This document shows, piece after piece, positions 7,467-32,391 of a stretch of 35,717 nt of DNA; the stretch's first letter is position 1; each line of letters opens with the position of its first letter. Both the position numbers and the translations under genes were made by a program. The stretch is from a virus, in IMG/VR virus record IMGVR_UViG_3300006099_000051; one strand, given 5' to 3'. The notes beneath the pieces are model-generated. The model was not told where the DNA came from. It worked only from the letters and a program-made list of their open reading frames with translations, and made no database searches.

Positions 7467-9299
7467 ATGAATATTGCAGAAATCAGACAGAAATATCCGC
7501 AATATAATGATTTGAGCGATGAACAATTGGCTAAAGGCTTGCATCAAAAATATTATGCCAATATGTCTTTTGACGATTTTTCGCAGAGGATTGGGTTGTC
7601 TAAAATGCCACAGATTACGGATGAGCAGCGAGAAGTTATTCAGGCTAGAAATAAAGCTTATGAAGATAAACAGGCTTCTCATTGGACGCAAAACCCTTTA
7701 ATACGGGGAGCTGTTGCTTTAGGACAGGGAATTTCAAACGCTTCGTTAAATCCAGCGGGTTATGTTGCTAGAAAAATAGGGATTGATACCAAACCATTGC
7801 AGGAGGAAAATGCAGCCGAGAGAGCTTTAGAAAAAGCAGGGGAATATGGCTTCAATGCGGCCGTTTTGTCTCCTGTCGGTAATTATCTGAAAGCTGCGGG
7901 CTTGCTTGGTAAAGGGCAAAGATTAGCCAGTAAAGCAGCGAGAGCGGTTTTGGCCCCGGGGAAAGGAGCCATGACGGCGGCGGCTTCTGGTGGTGCATTG
8001 GAGGGAGTTGTGGATCCGGAAAGTACAACTGGAAAAATTGCGGCAAATGTCGTCGGCGGTATGTTGGGCGGCGCAGCCGCAAATATTAGTAACCGTACTT
8101 ATCAGACCTTAAAAGGCGGTTTGGAAAATATTGCTGGCAATAAAAATGCAGCTCGGATTGTTCGCCGTGCTGCAAAGTTTGACGATGAGGTTGCGGAAAA
8201 GGTGTTGGCGGATATGTCTGATGCTGCCGCGGGGATTAATTCCCGAACAGCTGCCCAAATTGAAAGGAATTTAGGCAAGCCGAATTTAGATACAAAGAAA
8301 GGTATTGACGAAGCAAATAAAATTTATGGGAATTATATTTCTGATAATTTAAACAAAAGGACTGGATATGTAAAACAGCCGCGGAGTTTTAATGAATTTC
8401 AACAAGATGCATATGAAGATGCCTTAAAAGAAGGATTGAGGAAAGCGCCAAAGGGAGCTAAAGAATTTGGACTAGCTCATATAAACGAAGCAAAGAAAAT
8501 TCTTAATGACAAAATTGCAAACTCATATACGGTTAAAGGATTAGAGGTAATTCCTACCACAGATACGGCTTTGTTGACTGAAGTTAAAAAAACAGTGGAT
8601 AAAATGTTGCAGGGTGCTGGAATTAAACCATATGACGATCTTGCCAGGCAAGCAAAAGATATAGATTATTTTTATAGGCTTGGCAAAGAATATAAGCCAA
8701 GTAATATAAAATATTCAAATATAAATTTTCGCAAGCCTGCCAATGCTGCAGGAAATGAGTTAGAGTTTAATCGCTATATAGATAGGAAAAAAGCGTTTAA
8801 ATCTGGATTGTCTGAAAATATTTTATATAATTCGACGCCGCAGCAGAATTTATCCAGAGAAGCGAAGAAGTATCAAAATATTTTAAGCGAGCATCTTTAT
8901 GGAGATTCTCATAAGAAATTTTTGGAAGGAATTACTAAAAATGAGATAGATTATAATCGTTTGGCCAAGATAGGGAACTCAGCTGAAAATCATTTGGCAG
9001 TTCCGGAGGGAACGCGATTCTTCGGACGTGAACAGTTCGAAAGTAAAGGGGCTGGTGTTGGTGCCGCTTTGGATTATGCTTTGGGGCGATTAAATAGCGG
9101 ATATTATAAAAAAGCCGCACAACAGCTCTTAAACAGTAAAGGTGAGAATGTTAATGTTTTAACCAGCCCTGTTTATCAACAAATTCTGCGAAATATTTTG
9201 ACTGGAAGTGTTAAAGGGGCAGGTAGTAATATCAGAATAATGTCGTTACGGGATGTTGTGAAAAAATTGGGAGATAACGATGAATCTGCTAAAAAGTAA
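7467..9299 (+). CDS. Putative internal virion (ejection) protein, large
   Basis: 610 aa with Gly/Ala-rich hydrophobic stretches (GAMTAAASGGALEG...VVGGMLGGAAANI). Position equivalent to T7 gp15/16. Confidence 0.5.
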   Translation: MNIAEIRQKYPQYNDLSDEQLAKGLHQKYYANMSFDDFSQRIGLSKMPQITDEQREVIQARNKAYEDKQASHWTQNPLIRGAVALGQGISNASLNPAGYVARKIGIDTKPLQEENAAERALEKAGEYGFNAAVLSPVGNYLKAAGLLGKGQRLASKAARAVLAPGKGAMTAAASGGALEGVVDPESTTGKIAANVVGGMLGGAAANISNRTYQTLKGGLENIAGNKNAARIVRRAAKFDDEVAEKVLADMSDAAAGINSRTAAQIERNLGKPNLDTKKGIDEANKIYGNYISDNLNKRTGYVKQPRSFNEFQQDAYEDALKEGLRKAPKGAKEFGLAHINEAKKILNDKIANSYTVKGLEVIPTTDTALLTEVKKTVDKMLQGAGIKPYDDLARQAKDIDYFYRLGKEYKPSNIKYSNINFRKPANAAGNELEFNRYIDRKKAFKSGLSENILYNSTPQQNLSREAKKYQNILSEHLYGDSHKKFLEGITKNEIDYNRLAKIGNSAENHLAVPEGTRFFGREQFESKGAGVGAALDYALGRLNSGYYKKAAQQLLNSKGENVNVLTSPVYQQILRNILTGSVKGAGSNIRIMSLRDVVKKLGDNDESAKK

Positions 9300-9687
9300 A
9301 AATGAAGCTTTAGCTGAATTGTTGATGCAAGAAGGTGCTTTAACCGGACATGAAATTGCAGATCGTACAAGAAAACAATCTATTTTTGACCCTGCGGTTT
9401 TTTGGGAAACCTATAAAAATTTTAATCATTATAGACCATTGAGATTAAATGATAAGTATAAACATGCTATGATGAATTGTTTAGCTTCCCAACGAGGTAC
9501 AGGCGCTTTGCTGGGGATAGATATTTTATCTAGACTTAAAGAAAAATTTGATGTACTATCAGGAAATAACACGCAGAAAGAAAGCGATGAGGATATGAAA
9601 GCCAATGAAATTGGCCGCTTTTTAGGGTATAAATATCCTGAAGGAAATTGTGATGAAATGGTTCGAAAATATATTCGAAAAAAGTAA
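9280..9687 (+). CDS. Serum-amyloid-A-like domain protein
   Basis: 135 aa. FWETY...DKYKHAMMNCLASQRGTGALLG...DEDMKANEIGRFLGYKYP aligns by eye to the SAA core MWRAY...[22 protein letters not shown]...DQAANEWGRSGKDP. Confidence 0.55.
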   Translation: MNLLKSKNEALAELLMQEGALTGHEIADRTRKQSIFDPAVFWETYKNFNHYRPLRLNDKYKHAMMNCLASQRGTGALLGIDILSRLKEKFDVLSGNNTQKESDEDMKANEIGRFLGYKYPEGNCDEMVRKYIRKK

Positions 9688-9803: not shown

Positions 9804-9828
9804 AGCTCCGGGAACGGGGCTTTTTTTT
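9804..9828 (+). terminator. Intrinsic terminator ending the head/tail/ejection operon
   Basis: agctccg-ggaa-cggggct stem-loop followed by T8. Confidence 0.75.
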
Positions 9829-9855
9829 GACTCTTTTATTTGCGGATGTTAATAT
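9827..9855 (+). promoter_or_regulatory. Sigma70-type promoter of the moron
   Basis: TTGACT (9827-9832), a 17-nt spacer, then TAATAT (9850-9855). Confidence 0.65.
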
Positions 9856-9889
9856 GTTTCATCTTTTGTTTTGACTGAGAGGAGCGGAG

Positions 9890-10144
9890 ATGAAAAAGAT
9901 TTTATTGTTATTAATGGCGGCGGTGGTTTTGGCTGCCGGAGCGGCGGAAGCCAAATATCAGCGCGGATATGTCCGCAAAAACGGGACGTATGTGTCCGGG
10001 CATTTTAAGACAAGTTCTGACGGGAGTAAGTTGAATAATTACAGCACCAAAGGGAATCGGAATCCCTACACCGGAAAAAAAGGTTATAAGAATCCGTATA
10101 AGGTCAAGAGCTATAAAATGCCAAAAGTCTATCGGGGGGAATAA
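9890..10144 (+). CDS. Small secreted basic protein (moron)
   Basis: N-terminal signal peptide MKKILLLLMAAVVLAAGAAEA. The mature part is K/Y/G/N-rich, with GNRNPYTGKKGYKNPY. RBS gaggagcggag. Confidence 0.75.
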   Translation: MKKILLLLMAAVVLAAGAAEAKYQRGYVRKNGTYVSGHFKTSSDGSKLNNYSTKGNRNPYTGKKGYKNPYKVKSYKMPKVYRGE

Positions 10145-10145
10145 T

Positions 10146-10475
10146 TTGTATATTCCTATCGGTATATTAGTGTTGTTGGCTTTAGTTTTTCTCTCTTTTG
10201 ATGATTTTCTTGTGCTCTTAACTATTTTTGTTTTTGGGTGGTTACTTATTTATATGTGGCCATTAGCTCTAATTTTGTTGATTTGGTTTGTAGTAGGTAT
10301 AATGCTTGATAAGCTAAATATAATAATTGAAAAAGCGACTAAAAAAATAAATGAATTTTTAAGTTATCATAATAAGTTAAGAAAATTTGTAAGTTTTATT
10401 ACAAATAATTTTTTAATTTTAGTTGTTGGAATATTTTTTCTTTTTGTTTGGGGAATGGTCCTATTTGATAATTAA
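10146..10475 (+). CDS. Small polytopic membrane protein (moron)
   Basis: TTG start immediately after the upstream stop. About three hydrophobic segments. The DNA is very AT-rich compared with the rest of the genome. Confidence 0.6.
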   Translation: MYIPIGILVLLALVFLSFDDFLVLLTIFVFGWLLIYMWPLALILLIWFVVGIMLDKLNIIIEKATKKINEFLSYHNKLRKFVSFITNNFLILVVGIFFLFVWGMVLFDN

Positions 10476-10581
10476 TTGACTTTTAACTAATACAATATTA
10501 TTATAAAAGTATAGGGATTGAAACCCCTTCCATGAGCGGAAACGCTAGCCGAAATTGAGCGATTTTTTATTTTAAATTATT

Positions 10582-10667
10582 GTTGCGGATAGTGCGAATA
10601 TATTGAATAAGCATAAGTGACTTATGGCACTGTTTCAATATCCGCAACACCTTGAAAATTGAAACAG
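10582..10667 (+). promoter_or_regulatory. Nested, mutually exclusive inverted repeats in the leader of the Bro/antirepressor-like gene
   Basis: GTTGCGGATA (10582-10591) pairs with TATCCGCAAC (10639-10648). CTGTTTCAAT (10630-10639) pairs with ATTGAAACAG (10658-10667), which abuts the AGGAG Shine-Dalgarno. There is a perfect 15-bp palindrome CATAAGTgACTTATG at 10612-10626. Confidence 0.6.
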
Positions 10668-10678
10668 GAGACCATAAG

Positions 10679-11317
10679 ATGACAAATTTAGTGCATTTTA
10701 ACAACCATAATATTGAGTTAATTCAGTATAATAATCAGCCGTATATGACACTCCGCCAAATCGGTGGTGCGCTAGAATATGCCCGTCCGGATAAAATATC
10801 CACAATATACAATGAACACAAATCTGAATTTGATGAAGAAATGTCTTGTCTTGTTCGTAGAGGCAATACAAGAGTTCGGATTTTCAACCGAGAGGGTGCT
10901 TGGCTGATTGGTATGTTTGCTCGTACTCCTAAGGCCGCAGAGTTTCGGCGTTGGGTTCTTAAAGTTTTGGGGACAACGATAGATAAAGTTTATCCCTGCG
11001 GGGAAGTTAATGTGCGGGAGCATACCCGCTCTTTGCTGAGCGGTAAGAAAGAGATTGTGCTTTCTGAAAAAGCCAAGACTGAAATCGGCGGGATTGTTAA
11101 ATCTTGTATGGCCGCGGCGATTCGCGAAGAGTTGGCTGATTTGCTGGATTTTACGCAAGTTAAGGGGCAAGAACTGTCAGACAGCAATTTGATTTATCTG
11201 CTTTATCGTTGGCATTCAACGAAGAGTGAAGTTGATTTGAAGAAATTTCAGCAGGTGACTTCGGAAAATCAGGCGTTAAAAATTAAATTGGCGAAAATTA
11301 AACAGGCTGTTGCTTAA
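10679..11317 (+). CDS. Bro-N / P22-antirepressor-N-terminal-like protein (putative antirepressor)
   Basis: RBS aggag upstream of the ATG at 10679. NIELIQYNNQPYMTLRQIGGALEY...REGAWLIGMFARTPKAAEFRRWVLKVL resembles Bro-N/Ant N-terminal domains. Confidence 0.6.
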   Translation: MTNLVHFNNHNIELIQYNNQPYMTLRQIGGALEYARPDKISTIYNEHKSEFDEEMSCLVRRGNTRVRIFNREGAWLIGMFARTPKAAEFRRWVLKVLGTTIDKVYPCGEVNVREHTRSLLSGKKEIVLSEKAKTEIGGIVKSCMAAAIREELADLLDFTQVKGQELSDSNLIYLLYRWHSTKSEVDLKKFQQVTSENQALKIKLAKIKQAVA

Positions 11318-11346
11318 CTGGATTATATTTTCAATTAAAAAAATGC

Positions 11347-11386
11347 TTGACTTTATCCACAAGGTAAAGTAATGTTTTTTTATAGT
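11347..11386 (+). promoter_or_regulatory. Late promoter, copy A
   Basis: TTGACT (11347-11352), 17 nt, TAATGT (11370-11375), 5 nt, TATAGT (11381-11386). Near-identical to 32153-32192. Confidence 0.65.
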
Positions 11387-11438
11387 GAAAAACTGTAACT
11401 GATTAGTTGCAGTTTGACGCCTTTTCTATTTGCTAAAA

Positions 11439-11468
11439 ACCGCTTTGCGTTGCAAGGCGGTTTTTTTT
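11439..11468 (+). terminator. Intrinsic terminator in the leader downstream of late promoter copy A
   Basis: accgctttgc-gtt-gcaaggcggt forms a 10-bp stem, followed by T8. It lies directly upstream of the fibre gene RBS aagggagg. Confidence 0.85.
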
Positions 11469-11485
11469 GTTGTAAGGGAGGAATT

Positions 11486-11848
11486 ATGCCGTTTGACAGT
11501 GAGGGGATATATACCCGTTTTCATAACTGGGAAGAAGACCGGGAGAATGACATCGATATTGTGACCGATCATGCGGATGAAGAGGACAATGGGTTTGCTG
11601 ATGGGTTGTCATTGACATTTTTACGGGATGGACGCGTACCTATGCAGGGTGCTATTGATATGGCACAAAATAAAATCAAAAACTTGGCGGATGGGACAGA
11701 GGATGGTGATGCAGTGAATCGTGGGCAATTGGTTGAGGCTGCCGAACAAATAGACGCCAAGGCTGCCGTTGTGGCAGATAAGTTTAAGGCGGTGGAAACT
11801 TTGCCGGAAGAAACGGATGCGGAAACTTTTTATTTTGTATTTGAGTGA
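11486..11848 (+). CDS. Tail-fibre N-terminal (anchor) module, short paralogue (120 aa)
   Basis: The ATG at 11486 follows RBS aagggagg. MPFDSEGIYTRFHNWEEDR...EEDNGFADGLSLTFLRDGR...DAVNRGQL is paralogous to the N-terminus of the next gene. It ends with ETLPEETDAETFYFVFE. Confidence 0.75.
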   Translation: MPFDSEGIYTRFHNWEEDRENDIDIVTDHADEEDNGFADGLSLTFLRDGRVPMQGAIDMAQNKIKNLADGTEDGDAVNRGQLVEAAEQIDAKAAVVADKFKAVETLPEETDAETFYFVFE

Positions 11849-11859
11849 TGAGGGCGGAT

Positions 11860-12873
11860 ATGGCGTTTGACAGCGAGGGGATTTATCATCGTTTGCATAA
11901 CTGGACGGAAGACAGGTTGAGCGGGATAAATAAGAAAATTCAAGCGGCGCGCATGGATGAGGAAGACAACGGATTTGCTGCCGCATTGTCGCAGACGTTT
12001 CTGCGTGACGGGCGGGCAGAGATGGAAAATCCGTTAAACTTGGCAGAACATAAAATTTTTAATCTGGCTCGAGGGGCTTTGGACAGTGATGCCGTTAATC
12101 GAAAACAGCTGAACGAGGCGGTTAAAAAAGCCGATGACGCGTTAAAAAAAATAGCGGAATCCTTTGTGATTGTGGAAACGCTGCCTGCCAAACCGGTTGA
12201 CAGCGTTTTTTATTTTACTGCAGAAAAGCGTTTATACAAGGGCAGCCGCCGGATTATTGAAGTGTATTACAGCAATACGGCTTTAACTCCGATTGAGGTT
12301 TTGCACATATATAAAGGTTCGCAAATAGTTTATAAAGCTGAAGCTTATGAACCGGGAACTGTTTTGATTAAGCAAGCCGGAGCTTATACTTATAAGGCTA
12401 AGCTTCCTAAAGGGGTTTTTAAAATTTGTATTGCCAGTGCCGGGGGGACAGGGACAGTTTGGGTTGCCAATGCAATGGGCTATGCTAACAGCGGCGGTTC
12501 AGGTGCAGCGGTAGAGATAACCATTTTTAATCCTAAGGCGCAAGAATTGGAAATTTATGCCCCTCCGGGATTATCCGGTTATGGCTCACAAACCGGCGGT
12601 GATGCTTATTTGAAGATAGCCGGTGTAGAAATAGCTAGGGCGAAAGGTGGTATTGGTTCAGGAAGTGGCGGGACGTATAGTGTCAATAGTTCTGCCGAGG
12701 AGGTTGAGATTCTGAAGATTGACGGGAAAAACGGAAACGGCAGCCGCACTGGATTTTCCGGAAGTGTGCGCGTGGCTTCGGTGTCGCCTTATGATGATTG
12801 GGGTTGGGCAAATGAGTCGTCATCTGGTGCTGGAGGGATGCGTGTGGAATATATGAAATATAAAAAGGAGTGA
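11860..12873 (+). CDS. Tail fibre protein (anchor domain, short shaft, Gly-rich C-terminal domain)
   Basis: MAFDSEGIYHRLHNWTEDR...EEDNGFAAALSQTFLRDGR...DAVNRKQL, with an internal ETLPAKPVDSVFYFTAE. The C-terminal Gly-rich domain is similar to the C-terminus of 13927..15846. Confidence 0.8.
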   Translation: MAFDSEGIYHRLHNWTEDRLSGINKKIQAARMDEEDNGFAAALSQTFLRDGRAEMENPLNLAEHKIFNLARGALDSDAVNRKQLNEAVKKADDALKKIAESFVIVETLPAKPVDSVFYFTAEKRLYKGSRRIIEVYYSNTALTPIEVLHIYKGSQIVYKAEAYEPGTVLIKQAGAYTYKAKLPKGVFKICIASAGGTGTVWVANAMGYANSGGSGAAVEITIFNPKAQELEIYAPPGLSGYGSQTGGDAYLKIAGVEIARAKGGIGSGSGGTYSVNSSAEEVEILKIDGKNGNGSRTGFSGSVRVASVSPYDDWGWANESSSGAGGMRVEYMKYKKE

Positions 12874-16328: not shown

Positions 16329-16589
16329 ATGGCTAAAATAACAGGCGAGTTGCGGAAGCTCGGGAAAAAAAATCCAGAATTATTGTTGCAAAAACTCGAG
16401 GCGGTGGAACTTACTGACCTCGAGTTTCTTATTATGAGGCTTCGTTATATTGACGGGTTGGTATTTAAACAGATACCGGACATTGCCGGCGTATCGGAGC
16501 GGTGGGTTTATAAAGTGCATAAAAAGGCTGCTCAAAAGACAGCTGCCAGTATAAAATTGGCGGAATGGCTGGCTTTAACCGGACGGTAA
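16329..16589 (+). CDS. Small sigma-70 region-4-like HTH protein
   Basis: 86 aa. LTDLEFLIMRLRYIDGLVFKQIPDIAGVSERWVYKVHKKAAQK resembles sigma region 4 / LuxR-type HTH. Confidence 0.55.
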   Translation: MAKITGELRKLGKKNPELLLQKLEAVELTDLEFLIMRLRYIDGLVFKQIPDIAGVSERWVYKVHKKAAQKTAASIKLAEWLALTGR

Positions 16590-20139: not shown

Positions 20140-21219
20140 TTAATCGATGAAAACTGAATCTAGTGCTTGACGTTTTTCATCGTCAAGCGTGTGCGCATAC
20201 TTTAATGTTGTATTGATATTAGCATGGCCTAAAAGTTCTTTTGTCGTTCTTAGATTTTTTGTTTTGCGCAAAACCCAAGTTGCAAAAGTATGGCGTAGTG
20301 TATGAAAGTTTGTGTAAGGCAAGGTTGGATCTTTCAATTCCCTACTAAAAGATTTTCTTGTGTTTCTTTTATAGAAAATATTGCGCCAAGCAGTAGAGAT
20401 GCTTTTGATTGGTTTATTTTTATAGTTAAAAACATAGTTATTAATTTTGGGTTGATTTTCAAGGATCGCCATTAAAGGCTTGGCAATTGGCATTGTGTGG
20501 ATTTTTCCTCCGGATTTTGTGGAATCCTTGACTTTCAATGTTATTTGTCCGGTGTTAAAATCTATTTCTGACCATTTAAGATTAAGGATGTTACTTTCGC
20601 GAAATCCTGTATAGAGTGCCGTATATATAATTGGCTTTAAATGATCCGCAGCTTTATCTATTATTCTTTGAGCATAATTCCAATCTTTCAGATATTTGAT
20701 ATTTTCAGCAGGTTCTTTAAGTTTAAATTTTGAAAGCCTGATGGGGTAAGTTTTTACTTTCCATTCTTCGTTTGCGGTTCTTAAAACGGCGGAAAGAAGG
20801 TAAAGATAGCGGTTTATTGTGGAATTGCTTAGTGTGCCGCGATTTTGAGTAATGAAGCTGTTTATTTGCAGTTCGGTAATTTCGTGTAAATAGTATATTT
20901 TTAAATCATGTTTGAGTTTTGATAAGCGGCTTAATCTTTGTTGGGGGAGAGTTAGATATTGGCCTTTTTCCTGAAAATAACGGGCAAACGCCTCGTCAAT
21001 GGTTATGCAGGGCAATTCACCATTGGCTTGTTGACGAGCTTTCTTTTGCAATTGCGCAATTCTCTTGATGCAATATTGGATTGCTTTTGCTTCATCCGTT
21101 GTTCGAGTAGTCTCTCTAAACTGTATTCTGGCTCCGTTTTCGTCAATATACGAGATATAGGCATGGTAGATGTCGCCTCTTTTGAACAATCTATATGGTT
21201 CGTTGTGTCGTTTTGCCAT
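20140..21219 (-). CDS. int: Tyrosine integrase
   Basis: 359 aa. The C-terminus HTLRHTFATWVL...LLGHANINTTLKYAH carries the R..HxxR..Y catalytic pattern. It is adjacent to the tRNA-derived attP. Confidence 0.95.
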   Translation of the reverse strand: MAKRHNEPYRLFKRGDIYHAYISYIDENGARIQFRETTRTTDEAKAIQYCIKRIAQLQKKARQQANGELPCITIDEAFARYFQEKGQYLTLPQQRLSRLSKLKHDLKIYYLHEITELQINSFITQNRGTLSNSTINRYLYLLSAVLRTANEEWKVKTYPIRLSKFKLKEPAENIKYLKDWNYAQRIIDKAADHLKPIIYTALYTGFRESNILNLKWSEIDFNTGQITLKVKDSTKSGGKIHTMPIAKPLMAILENQPKINNYVFNYKNKPIKSISTAWRNIFYKRNTRKSFSRELKDPTLPYTNFHTLRHTFATWVLRKTKNLRTTKELLGHANINTTLKYAHTLDDEKRQALDSVFID

Positions 21220-23117: not shown

Positions 23118-23654
23118 TTAAAGCTTAACAGCGAGAACCGGCCTGACGTAGAGATTGTAATGGTACTTACTGCCGTAGGCCCTATAACCATACCTCATAG
23201 CGAATAGCCACGCATCGATAATATCGTACTCGGTAGAGGACCAATACCAGCTTTCCAGTTTTTCACCGTTTGCGGCTGTTAATCCGGCATTTACGTCCTC
23301 GATATTTAAGTGAATTAATGTTAACTCCCGGATGTCGGGGACGCGATATCCTTCAGGTAATTCTAACCCCATGGCTTTGTTCCAAGTAAATTCATCTTCG
23401 CAGTCTTCATCTTCAAAATCTTTTAGCGATACGAAAACGCCATAAAATCCGTCTTCTTTTTTGAGTTCTCCTGCGTATACGCCTTTGTCCGGGTAGTGTT
23501 TGCCAACTTCGTAGATTTTGCGCAGCTGCTCCATCGGCGTTTCGGACTGTTCCGCTTCTTTAGCCGGGATAATCAGTGCAAGTTCCGGATAGTCGCCGTG
23601 CATATGGGCGTTTAAAATTTCTTCATGGGTTTCAAGCATTATAACGTTTTTCAT
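23118..23654 (-). CDS. DUF1566 (Lcl C-terminal-like) domain protein, paralogue 1
   Basis: The C-terminus ...VPDIRELTLIHLN...WYWSSTEYDIIDAWLFAMRYG...YVRPVLAV matches the xWSSTE...AW...G...VRPV signature. Confidence 0.7.
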   Translation of the reverse strand: MKNVIMLETHEEILNAHMHGDYPELALIIPAKEAEQSETPMEQLRKIYEVGKHYPDKGVYAGELKKEDGFYGVFVSLKDFEDEDCEDEFTWNKAMGLELPEGYRVPDIRELTLIHLNIEDVNAGLTAANGEKLESWYWSSTEYDIIDAWLFAMRYGYRAYGSKYHYNLYVRPVLAVKL

Positions 23655-24650: not shown

Positions 24651-25055
24651 TTATAAAGCGAGAACCGGCCTGACGTAGTTATTGCTACCGTTCTTATAGT
24701 AGTAGTTCCTATTACCAATATTCATAGTGAATCTCCACGCACTGTAATTAGTGAACTCGGTAGAGGACCAGACTGTTTCATCATCAATGGGGGTAAATCC
24801 AGCAGCCGTGAGGGATTGGTTCAAAACCCCTTTATTGTCATAAATCGCTTGGCATTGGCGCAGATTGGGCATTTCGGCAAAAAGTTCCTCACATTCCTTT
24901 TTTCCGTCGTACCAGTCAACATCTTCAATCATCTCCGGATGCATGGCAAAGGCGTGATACTCATCTTCAACGACTACAATGCCTTTGAACTTTTTGTTCT
25001 CGTCAAACTCCGGGCTGATGGTCCCGTCAAAATAAGCGTAATCTCCTGTTTTCAT
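24651..25055 (-). CDS. DUF1566 domain protein, paralogue 2 (first gene of the leftward early operon)
   Basis: ...MPNLRQCQAIYDNKG...VWSSTEFTNYSAWRFTMNIG...YVRPVLAL. RBS aggag. Confidence 0.7.
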   Translation of the reverse strand: MKTGDYAYFDGTISPEFDENKKFKGIVVVEDEYHAFAMHPEMIEDVDWYDGKKECEELFAEMPNLRQCQAIYDNKGVLNQSLTAAGFTPIDDETVWSSTEFTNYSAWRFTMNIGNRNYYYKNGSNNYVRPVLAL

Positions 25056-25381: not shown

Positions 25382-25981
25382 TTTAAAAATCCATACATCC
25401 AATTTCTTATTGATTTGATTTAGCCATTTTTTTTGTGATTCTGTTGGTGTTGGTGAATGGGCGTGGATGGTAAGGCCGACTATCATATCGGCTAATTGGA
25501 TAAGGCGGTTATTTTTAGAATCTTCGTATTTTATTTTTGCTACATTGTTGCCTGCTTGAGAACGAATATAGTTAATAAGTTCAGTTTTAACTGAATCTTT
25601 TTTGCCGTCTAATTTTACAGAGGCGTTATTTAGTCTAGCGTGAGTTAAAACCTGTTTGAGGAAAAAGTTATAAAATTTATTAGCGTTACTGCGCAATTCT
25701 GAGCTGTTTACGAGTTTTTTGTTTACATAGAGGATTTTTGCGCGGAAATGACAGGCAGATATTTCTTGAAAAAATATATCTTTTACGCGATTGCAAGTTT
25801 TTGAGTATTTGAATTCAGAAAGGTGTCTTGCTTGTGTTGCAATGTGATTTATGGTTAATTCAGTATCCTCGGCATCCTTGGAATCTTCAAATATGATTAG
25901 GGCAAAAGCAAAGTTTTGCGAGGAATTTGCTTTAAATCCAGGATCGCCGCTTTCATCTATAAAAACTAATTGCTTAGTCAT
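25379..25981 (-). CDS. DUF3800 domain protein, translationally coupled to the repressor gene
   Basis: The N-terminus LVFIDESGDPGF and the C-terminal LIQLADMIVG match the DUF3800 pattern. Its ATG overlaps the cI stop (TAATG). Confidence 0.75.
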   Translation of the reverse strand: MTKQLVFIDESGDPGFKANSSQNFAFALIIFEDSKDAEDTELTINHIATQARHLSEFKYSKTCNRVKDIFFQEISACHFRAKILYVNKKLVNSSELRSNANKFYNFFLKQVLTHARLNNASVKLDGKKDSVKTELINYIRSQAGNNVAKIKYEDSKNNRLIQLADMIVGLTIHAHSPTPTESQKKWLNQINKKLDVWIFK

Positions 25982-26733
25982 TATCCTACCTTTTCCGCTT
26001 TAAGTGTGTAAATAATGCGGCCGAGAATGATAATATCTGATAATTTGGCATTTTCGTCTTTATAGTGCTGGTTGTCAGATAGAATTCTTATGGTGTTGGG
26101 TTCGGCGGAGCCTTGCAGGCGTTTGACGGCCAAGCCGGTGGAAAGGTGCAACAAATATATGCCGTCTGATTCCGGTGCGCGGCGCGAGGTATCTGTCAGC
26201 ACCCAGTCGCCGTCTTTTAAGGTTGGTTCCATGCTGTCGCCGCAGATGCGCAGCATTTTTATTTTGTCAGGCGTAGATGTATGAGAAATTGTGCGGAAAT
26301 CTTCGGTCGATATAATCCATTGGCCGGAGACGTTTTCGGAAAAGTTGTCAATCCCGTTGCCACAACAGGCGGTAACGTCCAGAATATCAATGGCGATATT
26401 GTCGGCAGGGGCTTTTTTGAAGAAGGAAGAAACGGTGTTGACGATTTTTTCGGCCGCGGCGGTGGTACCGGAAGTCGGAAGAGATAATGAGATTTTATCA
26501 GCTTTTCCCAAATTGTACGCGGTTAATTCACCTAAATCTAGGTTAAAAAATTTTGCAATATTATAAAGTTTGCTGGAAGGAATGTCTCTTTTATTGGATA
26601 ACAATTCAGAAACGCGTGCTTGATTCCAGTCAACTTTTTCCGCAAATTCTGCCTGGCTTATTTTGCGCTGCGTTAATATGTCATTCATCCATTGCCATTT
26701 ATTCATTGTTTTTTTTTGCCTCTTTTTATACAT
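25981..26733 (-). CDS. cI: CI/LexA-type repressor (HTH_XRE + S24 peptidase)
   Basis: ISQAEFAEKVDWNQARVSELLSNKR is the HTH. GDSMEPTLKDGDW...GLAVKRL is the S24 Ser/Lys signature. The start is at 26733 (possibly leaderless) or 26706. The track ORF upstream of these starts is non-coding. Confidence 0.9.
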   Translation of the reverse strand: MYKKRQKKTMNKWQWMNDILTQRKISQAEFAEKVDWNQARVSELLSNKRDIPSSKLYNIAKFFNLDLGELTAYNLGKADKISLSLPTSGTTAAAEKIVNTVSSFFKKAPADNIAIDILDVTACCGNGIDNFSENVSGQWIISTEDFRTISHTSTPDKIKMLRICGDSMEPTLKDGDWVLTDTSRRAPESDGIYLLHLSTGLAVKRLQGSAEPNTIRILSDNQHYKDENAKLSDIIILGRIIYTLKAEKVG

Positions 26734-26740
26734 ATTGTGT

Positions 26741-26768
26741 ATAATATCACATTTTTTTTGTTTGTAAA
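26741..26768 (-). promoter_or_regulatory. PRM-like repressor-maintenance promoter
   Basis: On the minus strand: TTTACA (26768-26763), 16 nt, TGaTATTAT (26749-26741). The ATG at 26733 lies about 8 nt after the -10, so the transcript may be leaderless. Confidence 0.5.
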
Positions 26769-26782
26769 ATGCATAAAATGAA

Positions 26783-26812
26783 TTGACATTATTCGTTTTG
26801 TGAATATATATA
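26783..26812 (+). promoter_or_regulatory. PR-like early-right promoter with an embedded operator
   Basis: TTGACA (26783-26788), immediately followed by TTATTC-n6-TGAATA (26789-26806) and a TATATA -10 region. cro starts at 26831. Confidence 0.75.
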
Positions 26813-26830
26813 AATGGTAGGAGGTGCAAA

Positions 26831-27028
26831 ATGCAAATACGAGCCAATAAAATTATAGAAGAATTTGGAGGAGTTTGTCGAATGGCAAAAGCTCTTGGTA
26901 TTTGGCCGAGTGTTGTGCAGGGGTGGAAAAATCGAAATAAGATTCCGATTTGGCGAATGTCTGTAATTTTATCCAAAGCAGCTGAAATGAATATTGATTT
27001 GGCTGATATAGATGATGGAGAGGAATAG
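26831..27028 (+). CDS. cro: Cro-like small HTH regulator
   Basis: 65 aa. FGGVCRMAKALGIWPSVVQGWKNRNKIP resembles Cro/YdaS-type HTH. RBS ggaggtg. Divergent from cI. Confidence 0.8.
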   Translation: MQIRANKIIEEFGGVCRMAKALGIWPSVVQGWKNRNKIPIWRMSVILSKAAEMNIDLADIDDGEE

Positions 27029-27691
27029 ATGGATATTTCGTCTCTGGAAAACAAAATTATCAATGCAGATTGTCTGGATATTCTTAAACAGCTGCCGGAT
27101 AAGTGCGTTGATTTAGTGCTGACTGACCCGCCGTATGGGATAGGTAATAAATTTACATCGGAATATGGTTTACAAGTTCAGAAAAGCAAGAGGGGGAGTT
27201 TTTCTTGGAATGATGCAATTCCATCCAAAGAAATTTTTGACGAAATTAAACGTGTTTCAAGGAATCAAATAATATTTGGCGGTAATTATTTTACAGAATA
27301 TTTGAAGCCGACAAATTCATGGCTGATTTGGGATAAGGTGGGGGAATATAATTTAAAGAATCCTTTTTCCGATTGTGAATTAGCATGGACAAGTTTTAAA
27401 AAGCCGATGCGCAAATATACGATTGTTAATATGGGGTTTATTTCCCAATCTGAAGAAAAAGGTAAAAGAATTCATCCGACTCAAAAGCCATTAAAGCTCT
27501 TTCAGAAAATTTTATCTGATTTCAGCAAGGAAAATGACCTTGTTCTTGATTGTTTTTCCGGTTCGGGGACGACAGCGGTGGCGTGTCATAAGCTAAAACG
27601 GCGGTTTATTTGTATTGAAAAAGATTTTGACTACTGGAAGTCCAGCGTTGCCCGGCTGGATGAGGTTCAGAGGCAGGGCAGTTTGTTTTAA
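27029..27691 (+). CDS. DNA methyltransferase, N6-adenine/N4-cytosine type (beta class), orphan
   Basis: LVLTDPPYG (motif IV) precedes VLDCFSGSGTTAVA (motif I). HPTQKPLKL is also present. No adjacent endonuclease. Confidence 0.9.
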   Translation: MDISSLENKIINADCLDILKQLPDKCVDLVLTDPPYGIGNKFTSEYGLQVQKSKRGSFSWNDAIPSKEIFDEIKRVSRNQIIFGGNYFTEYLKPTNSWLIWDKVGEYNLKNPFSDCELAWTSFKKPMRKYTIVNMGFISQSEEKGKRIHPTQKPLKLFQKILSDFSKENDLVLDCFSGSGTTAVACHKLKRRFICIEKDFDYWKSSVARLDEVQRQGSLF

Positions 27692-27709
27692 CAGATATAA
27701 GGAGGCATA

Positions 27710-27937
27710 ATGTTTGGTTTTGGCAAGAAAAAGAAGCATGTTCGATTGGACAAGGGCTGCGATAACGCGACAATAGAGAATTCTTATATAAATGAGTTTA
27801 ATCGGTTGGCGGCTAAGATTGTTGATGAGCAAAACCGATTGAAAGCGGATCATTGGGATAAGGAAGCTTTTGAACAGCTTGATACTATGGTTAAGAGGAT
27901 GTCTTTTTTGGCTTATCGGCATGGTTTTAGTAAATAA
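27710..27937 (+). CDS. Hypothetical early protein (75 aa)
   Basis: RBS aaggagg. No motif recognised. Confidence 0.6.
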   Translation: MFGFGKKKKHVRLDKGCDNATIENSYINEFNRLAAKIVDEQNRLKADHWDKEAFEQLDTMVKRMSFLAYRHGFSK

Positions 27938-27951
27938 GAGAGGAGAAAGTT

Positions 27952-28566
27952 ATGGAAGATATGAATATGGTGGCGCATTGTGTTGCTATTGGCGGTGTGG
28001 GGATGGTGTTGGGAGCTGTTGTTTCTTGGCTATATTGTGTATTAGCCGCCGGCAGCCCCAGCGGGGCAGGCACCGGCAGCGCCCCCGGCGGGGGAGACTT
28101 CACAGGCACGGAGATGCCTAATCCTCGCACATGCCAGTGTGTTCGGAGGCATGACGGAAAGGATGGTGACGTTGTAACGGCGGAAATTGAAGTTATTCCA
28201 GAGATTGGGGAATATGTAAAAGGCCGCGGGGTATATGCCGGTATTAACCGGAGCGGCAAGCATTTGTATGTACGCTTGAAAGATCATTTGATGGAGATGA
28301 GCTGGAGCGGGATGATGAAGCAGTATAAGCCGGAAAATCTGCCGACAATCGAAGATTTGGTGTTGATTTATATTCACAATGACAAAATTAACGCGGGCTT
28401 GATTGCTGCAGGCGGGCAGCCGTTAAAGGAAGATGGTTTCTATTGGTCCTCTACCGAGATCTATTATAACTACGCGTGGAAGTTCAGTATGCATAATGGT
28501 CGCAGGTACAGCACCAGTAAGTACTCTAGCAATGGCTACGTCAGGCCGGTTCGTTTGTTGGGATAA
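27952..28566 (+). CDS. DUF1566 domain protein, paralogue 3, with an N-terminal TM segment and a Gly/Pro-rich linker
   Basis: VAIGGVGMVLGAVVSWLYCVLAA is the TM segment. The C-terminus reads NLPTIEDLVLIYIHNDK...FYWSSTEIYYNYAWKFSMHNG...YVRPVRLL. Confidence 0.7.
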   Translation: MEDMNMVAHCVAIGGVGMVLGAVVSWLYCVLAAGSPSGAGTGSAPGGGDFTGTEMPNPRTCQCVRRHDGKDGDVVTAEIEVIPEIGEYVKGRGVYAGINRSGKHLYVRLKDHLMEMSWSGMMKQYKPENLPTIEDLVLIYIHNDKINAGLIAAGGQPLKEDGFYWSSTEIYYNYAWKFSMHNGRRYSTSKYSSNGYVRPVRLLG

Positions 28567-28573
28567 GTCGCCA

Positions 28574-28963
28574 ATGAAGAAAATGCATGCGCTTAAAGGA
28601 AAAGCTCAAGAATTAGCGAAAAAGTTTGGAGTTTCGCAGGAAATAGCAGACAGCTTTAGTTATGAGGATGAAGAAATGGAAAAAGAGCCTAAGATGCAAA
28701 TTGTTTATGATGCAGACAATGACAGTAAGAATATTCAACTGTCGGCCGATCGGTTGCGGTCATTGATTGAACGAGTGGAGCGTTTGGAGGAGGAAAAGGC
28801 AGCCATCGGCTCGGATATTCGCGATGTTTTTGCCGAAGCGAAAAGCGCGGGGTTTGACGTGAAATGTATGCGGGCGGTTATTAAGCTGCGGAAGATGAAT
28901 GCCGCGGATCGTGATGAGCAAGAGCTGTTGCTGGATACTTATTGCAAAGCTTTGGATATGTAG
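28574..28963 (+). CDS. GapR / DUF2312 (UPF0335) family DNA-binding protein
   Basis: LRSLIERVERLEEEKAAIGSDIRDVFAEAKSAGFDVKCMRAVIKLRKMNAADRDEQELLLDTYCKALDM aligns closely with the GapR core as I recall it. The ATG is at 28574; the track ORF starts further upstream. Confidence 0.8.
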   Translation: MKKMHALKGKAQELAKKFGVSQEIADSFSYEDEEMEKEPKMQIVYDADNDSKNIQLSADRLRSLIERVERLEEEKAAIGSDIRDVFAEAKSAGFDVKCMRAVIKLRKMNAADRDEQELLLDTYCKALDM

Positions 28964-29003
28964 CCGTTCAAGAGGCCGGCGATGAGTTCTGAACCCCTCC
29001 TGA

Positions 29004-29027
29004 CCTCCCCTTATCATTAAGGGGAGG
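29004..29027 (+). other. Perfect 10-bp hairpin without a U-tract
   Basis: cctcccctta-tcat-taaggggagg. The 3' arm contains a GGGGAGG Shine-Dalgarno-like sequence upstream of a 34-codon ORF (29040..29144). Confidence 0.6.
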
Positions 29028-29202
29028 AAATGGCCGGCAATGCCAGAGAAAGATTTCGGGGAGTATGAACGGAAGGCGGGCGCAGGCGTCCGTGAAGATG
29101 CAAACCATAAGGCAGAAAGCCGGTTCCCCGATTTACTGACATGACCGGCGAAATTTGCATCAACCTGCGCAGATTTTTTTTTATTCAATTAAGGATTTTG
29201 TG

Positions 29203-30084
29203 ATGGTGAAAATAAAATACATTGATTTGTTTTCCGGAATTGGCGGATTTACGCTGGGATTACAAAACGCCGGAATTGAATTTGACAGGCATTATTTTAG
29301 CGAGATAGATAAAAACGCTATTTCCATTTATAAAAAACATTTTCCAGCAGCAAAGGCGTTAGGCGATGTCACAACAATTAGAACTTTTTCAGGAATATCG
29401 GCCGATCTCATTACCTTCGGATTTCCCTGTCAAGATCTTTCATATGCTGGCAAAAGGCAAGGTTTGGCAGGCGCACGAAGCGGTTTGTTCTTTGAAGCGT
29501 TGCGGATTGTCAGGCAAGTTAAGCCTAAATATTTTATCTTTGAAAACGTCAAGGGATTGTTTACAAGTGACGGAGGAGCGGACTTTGTCAGATGTCTGCG
29601 AGAAATTGCCGACATTGGGCTATATGACTGCGAATGGCAGCTTGTTAATACAAGCTGGATATTACCCCAAAATCGAGAGCGGATATACTTTATCGGACAT
29701 CTTAGAGGAGCATCCTCCCCGAAAGTATTTCCTATCCGCGGACAGGCAGAAGAAAATAATAAATTTATTAAAGAAGCGCGGCGAGATTTAACCGTTTGGC
29801 CGGTGTGCGACATTACTTCTGCAAGTAAAATGCAAACTGGGCGGATGATTGGCGGTAGAAATGCATTTACTTTGACTACACGCAATATGCAGGGTGTTTG
29901 GAACGGGGAAAATTTTCGTTTTTTGATGCCGGTGGAGAGAGAACGTTTGCAGGGATTTCCCGATGGATGGACGGCCGAAGGAATAAACGGCGAAATAATA
30001 TCAGATAACGTTCGCGCAGAATTATTGGGGCGAGCCGTAACGGTGGGTATGGTTCAATTAATAGCACAGAAGTTATTCAATTAA
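29203..30084 (+). CDS. DNA (cytosine-5) methyltransferase, orphan
   Basis: DLFSGIGGF (motif I), FPCQDLS (IV), FENVKGL (VI), QNRERIYFIG (VIII), RERLQGFPDGW and GRAVTV (X). Confidence 0.92.
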   Translation: MVKIKYIDLFSGIGGFTLGLQNAGIEFDRHYFSEIDKNAISIYKKHFPAAKALGDVTTIRTFSGISADLITFGFPCQDLSYAGKRQGLAGARSGLFFEALRIVRQVKPKYFIFENVKGLFTSDGGADFVRCLREIADIGLYDCEWQLVNTSWILPQNRERIYFIGHLRGASSPKVFPIRGQAEENNKFIKEARRDLTVWPVCDITSASKMQTGRMIGGRNAFTLTTRNMQGVWNGENFRFLMPVERERLQGFPDGWTAEGINGEIISDNVRAELLGRAVTVGMVQLIAQKLFN

Positions 30085-30095
30085 AGGATTTAAGG

Positions 30096-31343: not shown

Positions 31344-31374
31344 TGAGTGTGTTTGACAGTTAAGGGAGAATGTT

Positions 31375-31851
31375 ATGAGAGTAAGTAGTGATGAAACTTA
31401 TATCAGCAAAAAGGACTTGGTTCGCACGGATGAAAAGCCTTTTAACCGATTTGTCCGCCGCTACGGGACTTGGTATCGCCGCAGTGCGCTAGAGGTTATT
31501 TATGAAGAAACGGATTGGCTTGCCTATTGTGACGATGATGTTTATAACGCGCTTAATCGTTTTACTGTCGCCAAGCGGTATTTTGGCGATTTCAAGAAAT
31601 CCGGATTGGGAGAAGTCGGCGTTCCAAACATGGCAAAAATAAAAGTTGATGGCGGTTTTAAAGGCTTTGGCAAGTCATCTGCATATATGGAAAGCGCTGA
31701 AAGCCGGTATATTCAGGCCTCTCGTGCTGTTGCTGCTTGGGTTTTGCCTATATTGCAGAGGGTATGTCTTGAGGACAAACTTATTGATAAGGCTCAGGCG
31801 CATCATTTGTGCGCTGGATTGGACTATTTGATTTTTTATTATTTGCATTAA
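31375..31851 (+). CDS. Hypothetical protein; candidate late-gene regulator by position (Q-like slot)
   Basis: 158 aa. RBS agggaga. It is the last sizeable early-right gene, upstream of the terminator and late promoter. No motif recognised. Confidence 0.45.
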   Translation: MRVSSDETYISKKDLVRTDEKPFNRFVRRYGTWYRRSALEVIYEETDWLAYCDDDVYNALNRFTVAKRYFGDFKKSGLGEVGVPNMAKIKVDGGFKGFGKSSAYMESAESRYIQASRAVAAWVLPILQRVCLEDKLIDKAQAHHLCAGLDYLIFYYLH

Positions 31852-31928
31852 AAATTTCATGTTGATGTCTTGTATATGTGATGAGGGTGCTTATATCTTT
31901 TGTCGAATGAAACAAAAAGGAGTTGGCT

Positions 31929-32075
31929 ATGATTGATATGATCACGACTTACTATCTTTTCTTATTTTTTTGCGGTGTCTTTTCTGATGTTAAGCAAGGG
32001 CGCGGATACCCAGTTATTTTAATGGCGTTTCTTTTGGAGATTCCCAAAGCCGGGCGATTTTTTGGGATTTGGTAA
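31929..32075 (+). CDS. Small hydrophobic protein (48 aa, below the track cutoff)
   Basis: RBS aaaggag upstream of the ATG at 31929. MIDMITTYYLFLFFCGVFSDVKQGRGYPVILMAFLLEIPKAGRFFGIW has two hydrophobic segments. Confidence 0.45.
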   Translation: MIDMITTYYLFLFFCGVFSDVKQGRGYPVILMAFLLEIPKAGRFFGIW

Positions 32076-32095
32076 AAGCTTCTGATGGGGGGAAG

Positions 32096-32130
32096 ATGAG
32101 ACTGTTTGGGGAGGCAGTCTCATTTTTTTT
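32096..32130 (+). terminator. Intrinsic terminator ending the early-right operon
   Basis: atgagactg-n10-cagtctcat followed by T8. Confidence 0.85.
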
Positions 32131-32152
32131 ATTATTTCACGAAAAAAAGTTC

Positions 32153-32192
32153 TTGACTTTATCCACAGGGGGATGTAGTGTTTTTCTATAGT
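32153..32192 (+). promoter_or_regulatory. Late promoter, copy B
   Basis: TTGACT (32153-32158), 17 nt, TAGTGT (32176-32181), 5 nt, TATAGT (32187-32192). Near-identical to 11347-11386. Confidence 0.65.
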
Positions 32193-32213
32193 GAAAAATT
32201 GTATGTATATGAA

Positions 32214-32243
32214 ACCCCGCGGGCGTGAGCTTGGCGGGGTTTT
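32214..32243 (+). terminator. Intrinsic terminator in the late leader (first of three)
   Basis: accccgc-n13-gcggggt followed by tttt. Confidence 0.65.
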
Positions 32244-32330
32244 CTGACTCGAAAATACGCGCACGATAATATTTTATTGGGCGCAATGCCTTTAAATGCA
32301 AGGCTTTTAGGCGATTGTTAAAACTTGAAT

Positions 32331-32355
32331 AAACGGCTGATTCAGCCGTTTTTTT
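32331..32355 (+). terminator. Intrinsic terminator immediately upstream of terS
   Basis: aaacggctg-att-cagccgttt followed by T7. A weaker hairpin, gcctt-n7-aaggc-tttt, lies at 32288-32308. Confidence 0.8.
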
Positions 32356-32391
32356 GTGGAAATTTGGGAAAGATGGCGGCGAGGAGGGAGA

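Follow-up and report, generated by a model that had tools for sequence, protein, structure and literature searches.

Duplicated late-promoter cassettes in a temperate phage genome, most likely controlled by a GafZ-related phage protein

Two promoter-like cassettes, nearly identical and 20.8 kb apart, are present in the 35,717-nt stretch of DNA analyzed here (the window; IMG/VR virus record IMGVR_UViG_3300006099_000051), which is a temperate phage genome of about 35,640 bp with 42.5% G+C. Each cassette precedes late genes, and the question raised by the locus is how these genes are switched on and by which protein. To judge from the sequence, the protein that most likely operates the late-gene switch is a phage-encoded relative of GafZ, an anti-terminator from a gene transfer agent (GTA). 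With moderate confidence, each cassette is read as a strong sigma-70 late promoter combined with a loading site for a promoter-specific, processive anti-terminator of the GafZ lineage, for which p158 (31375..31851, + strand) is the candidate.

Copy A (11346-11397) and copy B (32152-32203) were identical at 45 of 52 positions in an ungapped comparison, and the repeat extended upstream (61/75 identical, 81%; 11323-11397 vs. 32129-32203). The chance expectation for such a pair in the window was about 5e-11, calculated with the window base composition. The 15-mer TTGACTTTATCCACA and the 12-mer TATAGTGAAAAA were exact at both cassettes and occurred nowhere else in the window. An initial annotation, made from the letters alone, had proposed the two copies and a promoter geometry for them, and both proposals were borne out: in each copy, on the + strand, TTGACT (11347-11352 in A, 32153-32158 in B) is followed by 17 nt, TAATGT (A, 11370..11375) or TAGTGT (B, 32176..32181), 5 nt and TATAGT (11381-11386 in A; 32187-32192 in B, about -1 to +5). 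An A-tract lies upstream, UP-like in copy B, so that A-tract and -35 element CTTGACT together occupy 11337..11352 and 32142..32158. The spacers (11353..11369 and 32159..32175) both hold the 9-mer TTATCCACA (11353-11361, 32159-32167), which in copy A lies within the near-dyad ACTTTATCC-ACA-AGGTAAAGT (11350-11370). TATAGT continues into a conserved stretch, GAAAAACTGTA in copy A (11381..11397 with the hexamer) and GAAAAATTGTA in copy B (32187..32203), the latter being the predicted initial transcribed stretch; TATAGT with GAAAAATTGTA is proposed as a candidate sigma-dependent pause and loading site. TAATGT and TAGTGT each match TATAAT at only 3/6 positions, with T, A and the last T retained, and for this reason neither promoter was listed by the consensus scanner.

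Conservation of this architecture was assessed in related phages. A blastn search of the cassette against GenBank phages returned nothing, and an exact-peptide search with terS gave no relative. Scans across the public collections with pairs of cassette motifs (TTGACTTTATCCACA-N-TATAGT and TTATCCACA-N-TATAGTGAAAAA) matched by chance or in unrelated DNA only: a Clostridia coding region (L001, L005-L007), giant-virus coding DNA (L009, L010), an unrelated promoter (L008) and a tandem DnaA-box site (L011). The relatives surfaced through proteins and through a conserved element in the terS leader. Seven cassettes from five phage lineages were aligned, namely copies A and B and those of L002, L027, L019/L020, L029 and L034. 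In L002, which encodes a p158 homologue 98% identical, cassette B was found unchanged and fused to the stop codon of that gene. The cassette of L027 (homologue 46% identical) reads CTTGACTTTATCCACAGGGTAAAG-TAGTAT-TTAGC-TATGAT-GAAATAAGTGTATG, followed by a terminator; that of L019/L020 (protein P0010, 26% identical) reads CTTGACA-GCAGGCAGCCTGCTTTGC-TATAAA-AAAGG-TATCGT-GAAAGAG, followed by two terminators and terS; that of L029 (protein P0006) reads TTGACA-ATTTCGGGCGAAACTGG-TATGAA-AATTGT-CATAAT, followed by a terminator; and that of L034, a 38.5-kb temperate phage with a Pfam-significant DUF6456 protein, reads TTGACA-17 nt-TATAAA-AATATG-TATAGT-GGGA, followed by three terminator-like hairpins and terS.

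CTTGAC and the nATnnTG of the second hexamer were invariant in the alignment. All seven cassettes have an upstream A-tract, a TAnnn(T/A) hexamer 17-18 nt from CTTGAC, a second hexamer 5-6 nt past the first and, within about 100 nt downstream, a hairpin with a T-run (one to three terminators, then late genes). The -35 and -10 assignment, the second hexamer near +1 and the leader terminators of the initial annotation were thus seen again in five other cassettes. In every lineage, a gene of the p158 family lay 5' of the terS-proximal cassette (hmmsearch); it abuts the cassette in L002, and small open reading frames (ORFs) intervene in the window, L019/L020, L027 and L034. The first hexamer was taken as the -10 because the consensus -35 would otherwise stand 28-29 nt from the only other candidate, and the alignment indicates that the second hexamer is under selection. 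In lambdoid PR' and in the Bartonella GTA (BaGTA), NANNNT placed 5 bp after the -10 is a pause and loading signal for Q-type anti-terminators; TATAGT in the window, 5 nt past the -10, fits this element.

The L002 locus is also rearranged. Compared with the window (31830-32140), L002 (860-900) has lost the gene for the small hydrophobic protein p48 and the terminator upstream of the cassette, and the stop codon of its p158 homologue is the TGA of CTTGAC, inside the cassette. The break falls at a short direct repeat, TTTTTTATTATTT, which in the window flanks the missing segment on either side.

Downstream of both promoters, terminators precede the first late gene. In leader A, a terminator with a 14-pair stem (11435-11465) and T8 lies at 11435..11468 (+), 18 nt before the fibre-gene start codon at 11486, and folding also gave a 5' hairpin of non-terminator type at 11390..11415 (+; whole-leader z-score -5.8). 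Leader B has a terminator-like hairpin 1 at 32212..32245 (+; hairpin 32212-32243, weak U-tract with the tail UUUUCU) and terminator 2 at 32331..32358 (+; 9-pair stem 32331-32351, T7), which stands directly before the terS ribosome-binding site. A third terminator on this side (32089..32130, +; 19-pair stem, T8) closes the early-right operon just 5' of cassette B, and hairpins of this early-operon type also lie 5' of the cassette in L027 and L034. A terminator 50-80 nt after each copy had been expected. This describes copy A, with one strong terminator 49-79 nt past TATAGT, but not copy B, in which hairpin 1 is only about 20 nt and the cleaner second terminator 139 nt past TATAGT. The stem of hairpin 1 is retained in L016/L021 with at least one compensated change seen by eye (CCCCGC/GCGGGG in the window vs. 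CCCCGGA/TCCGGGG in L016/L021).

Such leaders could in principle be the end product, if the cassettes were constitutive promoters of short terminated small RNAs, or else recombination junctions, and late expression came from elsewhere. The predicted RNAs are compact and well folded (about 45-90 nt, terminator-ended), identical 80-nt copies in L019/L026 border variable moron and fibre modules, and L002 is rearranged at the cassette edge. We consider this very improbable nonetheless. The two leader RNAs are alike over their first 16 nt only and share no sequence beyond, Rfam at the gathering threshold found no family in the window, neither leader had a further promoter-like site listed from its terminators to the first late gene, and the link to a GafZ-like gene and the position before late operons would be left unexplained. 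ARAGORN called nothing in the window.

The element through which some relatives were found, TTTTCTGACTCGAAAATACGCGC...GCCTTTAAATGCAAGGC (TTTTCTKACTCGAAAATAYGCGCG ... GCAAGGCCTTGAAAAATAAGGGCTTGC), occupies about 85 nt of the second leader just 5' of terS (window 32240-32325). It was also present at L013 5431-5515, L016 5426-5510, L019 5283-5367 (-), L021 4408-4492 (-) and L023 5492-5576, and is kept among phages with three types of late promoter. It may be a packaging (pac/cos) site or an RNA element of the terS leader; RNAalifold gave no supported consensus structure for it.

The protein best placed to act on the cassettes is p158, a predicted late-gene anti-terminator encoded by the second-to-last gene of the early-right operon. 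There, p158 occupies the position that Q has in lambda. A phmmer search with p158 over 1.84 billion representatives gave 14 relatives. The Pfam profile PF20057 (DUF6456) matched 11 of the 18 aligned sequences, five of them at the gathering score of 26.3 bits (P0006, 26.3; P0007, 26.6; P0009, 29.2; P0011 and P0013, 45-47), and phmmer connected p158 with P0006 (E = 6e-10), P0007 (2e-7) and P0011 (1e-4). By this chain of homology p158 is placed as a probable divergent member of the DUF6456/GafZ lineage. The gafA gene and its homologues are annotated as DUF6456, and the C-terminal domain of GafA is the counterpart of GafZ. Experiments have shown GafZ to be an anti-terminator that travels alongside RNA polymerase as well as NusA, NusG and NusE, needs a near-palindromic element (ZBE) between -35 and -10, and lets polymerase bypass terGTA and rrnB T1; its authors note the parallel with the Q-binding element (QBE) of lambda.

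A lambdoid Q identity for p158 was rejected, as there was no Pfam or PHROG match to Q and no significant match to Protein Data Bank (PDB) sequences or folds. The AlphaFold2 model of p158 is helical (predicted local distance difference test score, pLDDT, 77) and had no significant fold match among solved structures in Foldseek (best E = 1.8), nor did the family profile match PDB sequences significantly; this agrees with the statement of the GafZ authors that GafZ is unlike any known anti-terminator. In phage databases the family appeared only as phrog_21451 (function unknown) and one unannotated metagenomic fragment, and the literature searched mentions DUF6456 only for gene transfer agents. 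Of the lambdoid Q/qut-style interpretation in the initial annotation, the layout therefore stands and recurs in relatives, and the regulator gives way to a candidate of the GafZ/DUF6456 lineage.

Two regulator genes had been put forward there. That at 31375..31851 (p158) is a likely choice, a family member being encoded 5' of the late promoter in five other cassettes as well. The other, p86 (16329-16589), has only a helix-turn-helix (HTH) like that of sigma region 4, and nothing ties it to the cassette. GafZ-type domains are naturally paired with an HTH like DnaA domain IV, and p86 was rejected as a GafY-like partner too, because it resembles sigma-70 region 4 and FliA, not DnaA. No GafY-like or DnaA-like HTH was found among the window ORFs scanned. 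The 86-aa p86 is encoded in the late fibre-lysis block between two lysozyme-like genes.

Between p158 and cassette B lies the gene for p48 (31929..32075, +), a small hydrophobic protein with homologues of 47-66 aa ending ...LE(I/L)P..GR....W. Similar ORFs separate the family gene from the cassette in L019/L020, L027 (882-1028), L028 (811-1011) and L034 (11232-11378). No family match was obtained for p48, which is gone from L002; conceivable roles are those of a membrane partner or of a factor that times lysis.

From this architecture we infer a start site, a pause, binding by p158 and antitermination in the following order. Host RNA polymerase would bind the A-tract, CTTGACT and TAATGT or TAGTGT across the 17-nt spacer and start inside TATAGT. 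Sigma region 2 would then re-bind TATAGT on the non-template strand and keep the early elongation complex at the conserved YTGTA, some 15-17 nt downstream. Without the regulator the transcript would stop at 11435-11468 (A) or at 32212-32245 and 32331-32358 (B). Once made at the end of the early-right operon, p158 would bind the spacer element (TTATCCACA and the partial dyad) and move onto the paused polymerase, making it termination-resistant, so that transcription could reach terS through the tail genes from copy B and the fibre and lysis genes from copy A.

Several observations weigh against this reading. p158 alone gave no match to DUF6456 at E <= 1 and has no direct Pfam, PHROG or NCBIfam match, so that homologues of 30-36% identity connect it to the family. 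GafZ acts together with GafY and IHF, and a GafY-like gene was not found here; nor is a sigma-dependent pause reported for GafZ. The dyad is degenerate in the right half of copy B and missing from L034, and TTATCCACA is a box that host DnaA would bind whatever p158 does. Finally, the first hexamers are weak, at 3/6 in the window and, in three relatives, as TATAAA or TATGAA without the final T, and the second hexamer, being better and more conserved, could be the true -10.

If TATAGT were the real -10, p158 would be a classical activator bound over -46 to -32 and the hairpins attenuators or insulators, with no pause and no antitermination. TATAGT matches TATAAT at 5/6 positions, against 3/6 for TAATGT and TAGTGT, and is invariant as the second hexamer of the seven aligned cassettes. 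GafA was first described as an activator binding near -10/-35, and deletion of gafZ cuts expression about 4-fold even where no terminator is present. The spacing argues the other way: CTTGAC with its A-tract lies 17-18 nt from the TA-hexamer in 7/7 cassettes and 28-29 nt from the second hexamer, which is too long for sigma-70. Activator-dependent late promoters, such as those of Mu and P2, typically lack a good -35, and the pattern of the Mor/C (Mu) or Ogr type (P2), a good -10 with no -35, differs from the consensus -35 present here. The activator-dependent late promoter of the GTA also lacks a good -35. With one to three strong terminators between promoter and first gene in every lineage in addition, we regard activation without antitermination as improbable, and retain the first hexamer as -10 and the second as the proposed pause site.

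The spacer element bears on which protein recognizes the promoter. It had been interpreted solely as a Q-binding site; that a regulator-specific element recurs in the relatives is in keeping with this idea, but a perfect DnaA box had been missed. TTATCCACA equals the DnaA-box consensus at all nine positions, and perfect boxes in the window number 3 against 0.44 expected. The 9-mer occupies the spacer of copies A and B, L002 and L027. Around it, copy A and L027 have the near-dyad ACTTTATCC-ACA-GGGTAAAGT (symmetry at 14/21 positions in copy A and 16/21 in L027, P about 0.002), and dyad symmetry was 14/15 in L019 and 10/12 in L029. TTATCCACA accompanies p158 and its 98% and 46% homologues, the perfect palindrome GCAGGC-A-GCCTGC accompanies P0010 (the 26% homologue), and the dyad TTTCG-GG-CGAAA accompanies P0006. 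Judged by these sequences, the spacer element covaries with the protein clade, the pattern that a regulator and its cognate site should show.

Host DnaA might control the late promoters through the same 9-mer, blocking them until it is titrated away or recruiting p158, either alone or as an extra layer on top of antitermination. The 9/9 box has the same place in copies A and B, L002 and L027, and a perfect box also stands at the upstream edge of a late promoter of another type in L016, L021, L023 and L024, which have no p158 homologue in the stretch examined. Paired boxes in rep-like homologues (L013, L016, L017) and TTATGCACA in the window give the impression that this phage group uses DnaA, and the natural partner of GafZ-type domains is DnaA-domain-IV-like. 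The box is not kept wherever the cassette is kept: the cassettes of L019/L020, L029 and L034 lack it and retain all else, with other clade-tracking spacer elements. In copy A and L027, moreover, the 9-mer is the left half and center of the longer dyad, which fits a dimeric phage protein and not DnaA. Such control by DnaA is thus doubtful, although it has some likelihood. A narrower version, in which host DnaA itself replaces GafY as the DNA-bound partner or gatekeeper of a GafZ-like anti-terminator in a phage without a GafY-type partner resembling DnaA domain IV, is less likely again. If it applied, the late switch would read the DnaA and replication state of the cell directly, the late promoters opening once replicating phage genomes titrate DnaA, or DnaA handing p158 to the polymerase. 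Recognition of the spacer by p158 is the reading favored here, with DnaA as a less probable alternative or co-reader.

DnaA boxes were also seen away from the cassettes. One or two lie within the gene of rep-like homologues beside a conserved GGGGGAAAAC (L013, about 4300; L016, 2759-2783; L017, about 4343). The rep-like gene of the window (30096-31343) has the box-like TTATGCACA at the matching place (30733), and two such boxes lie 3' of the p158 homologue in L004. Those inside the rep-like gene form a candidate internal origin that would use host DnaA. The lambda ori likewise lies inside a gene, gene O.

Other late switches occur beside the same packaging genes. In L013 (5200-5320) and L017 (5230-5340), the same terS/terL module is preceded by a small HTH gene between rep and terS, behind which come direct repeats (ATTTTACA or TTTGCAACA; 3-4 copies), then a -10 and then a hairpin resembling a terminator. 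Late regulation in this phage group therefore rests on a mosaic module. A third type of late promoter (L016 4992-5064, with equivalents in L021, L023 and L024) lies in a divergent intergenic region and comprises a perfect DnaA box, two copies of the palindrome ATGTTTAAACAT and TATAAT. No second copy of this DnaA-box promoter was found in any contig. In L016, promoter and hairpin are separated by an additional insert of about 250 nt, tRNA-like by eye; ARAGORN made no call on it.

The two-cassette layout was also found outside the window. On the contigs of L019 and L020, the cassette of each phage occurs a second time with 100% identity, its first hairpin included (L026 and L025, respectively). 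In L026 this copy is followed by a terminator of the type seen after window copy A (CCGCTTTGTGTGAACAAGGCGG and T7) and by a homologue of the first fibre gene of the window (77% protein identity); in L025 the leader is longer, but this fibre homologue and this terminator sequence are both present. One cassette thus precedes terS and one the fibre-gene homologue in L019/L026 and L020/L025, as in the window. Copies within one genome match each other and not their positional counterparts in other genomes, from which it follows that the layout is maintained together with the regulator. The initial annotation had attributed the two copies to a late regulon split by insertion of the moron block. That explanation is too narrow, because a relative with a different cassette sequence (L019/L026) has cassettes at the same two positions, and the arrangement is therefore a lineage trait. 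The second copy would re-license transcription past the moron and anti-repressor block, which has promoters of its own, and the terminator at 11435 would shield the lysis genes from that block. In a lysogen, this terminator makes sense as an insulator that would keep transcription started at the moron and ant promoters out of the fibre and lysis genes.

Compared with known systems, p158 probably belongs, by homology, to the same protein lineage as GafZ of the Caulobacter crescentus GTA and the C-terminal domain of GafA of Rhodobacter capsulatus. As for GafZ, an element that is often a near-palindrome lies between -35 and -10, the protein would be tied to one promoter type, and terminators past the promoter would have to be bypassed for the head and tail genes. 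In contrast to GafZ, the present system belongs to a temperate phage with integrase and CI, at 42.5% G+C, and the host of this phage may not be an alphaproteobacterium. A consensus -35 is present here and a degenerate one there, no GafY-like gene was found among the scanned ORFs, and recruitment of the GafY type is seemingly unneeded given the consensus -35. The terminators stand in the leader before the first gene here and after the first gene there; each genome has two loading cassettes, whereas GafZ has a single target; and the conserved -10-like hexamer has no reported counterpart in PgtaT.

The layout also resembles that of lambda Q (PR'/qut/tR') and of phages 21 and 82. In these lambdoid systems the regulator gene ends the early-right operon 5' of the late promoter, an element lies between -35 and -10, NANNNT follows a few nt past the -10, and a short terminated leader RNA is made; by analogy the same would hold here. 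Unlike the lambdoid Q families, p158 has no sequence or fold similarity to Q, there are two cassettes rather than one and up to two leader terminators, and the element in the spacer is at once a DnaA box. The short-tailed temperate phage P22 is similar in that an anti-repressor block with its own promoter (immI, ant) precedes the tailspike gene and so lies between virion and receptor-binding genes. P22 has a single late promoter with read-through by gp23-modified polymerase, and differs in this from the window, where a second full cassette with its terminator re-starts and insulates the fibre and lysis block. BrrG of the Bartonella GTA, acting at PbgtA-K, offers a further analogy, with a processive anti-terminator, a long attenuating leader and a required NANNNT 5 bp past the -10. 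BrrG is described as resembling Q21 in structure; p158 does not share this Q21-like structure, no solved structure having given a significant fold match with it.

To date, GafA and GafZ are known as regulators of alphaproteobacterial gene transfer agents alone. The present system would bring true phages into the range of this regulator family. The occurrence of a GafZ-like gene where lambda has Q, together with a sigma-70 promoter, hexamer and leader terminators, suggests that the GTA regulator may descend from a phage late-gene anti-terminator. The phage would also offer a compact natural system, seemingly free of a need for GafY or IHF, in which to ask if members of the family, like Q, load at a sigma-dependent pause. 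With its own protein and its own spacer element, each genome provides a specificity pair for mapping DNA recognition. With the two-cassette layout, a small phage could shield its fibre and lysis genes from transcription of the moron block without giving up their late expression, and the spacer's DnaA box points to a possible link of late transcription to replication.

Gene calls for the window came from PHROG, Pfam and NCBIfam scans, and the gene order is lambdoid or P22-like. Positions 1-77 and 35641-35717 are 100% identical over 77 nt, so the assembly is circularly closed or terminally redundant; the portal gene spans the ends, and the ORF at 18-638 matches the C-terminal part of the portal profile. 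An integrase (20140-21219, -) and a CI-like repressor (25981-27063, -) were identified. The early-right operon (27029-32075, +) encodes two methyltransferases, a GapR-like protein, the 415-aa rep-like protein, p158 and the 48-aa hydrophobic protein. The late genes expected downstream of each copy were found there: after copy B, terS, terL, portal, major head, tail and ejection-like genes run from 32392, probably the ATG of terS, across the window ends to 9687; after copy A, fibre-like and lysozyme-like genes run from 11486. Between the two blocks lie a terminator (9804-9821) and the moron and anti-repressor (Ant/Bro) genes (9827-11317), each with its own promoter-like site. Uptake sequences of Neisseria and Pasteurellaceae were not enriched in the window.

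The moron promoter (9827-9855) reads TTGACT-17-TAATAT with a TG; together with the start of the small gene 9890-10144 (MKKIL...) it is kept in the L026 phage (about 5080, -), 5' of the second cassette. The last gene of the virion operon (9280-9687) encodes a 135-aa product with a Pfam serum amyloid A match (PF00277; E = 4.6e-10; 40.2 bits, cut-off 30.8), an unusual domain for this position. An N-terminal motif, MPFDSEGIY...HNW.EDR, opens the first two genes after cassette A (11485-11542 and 11859-11916; 81% DNA identity), with 8207-8240 noted alongside, and suggests two alternative or stacked fibre proteins with a putative common attachment domain. Three paralogous early genes (23118-23654, -; 24651-25055, -; 27952-28566, +) share a C-terminal domain, phrog_4245, with a weak Lcl_C-like match, and two of the three form a 125-nt repeat with 73% identity.

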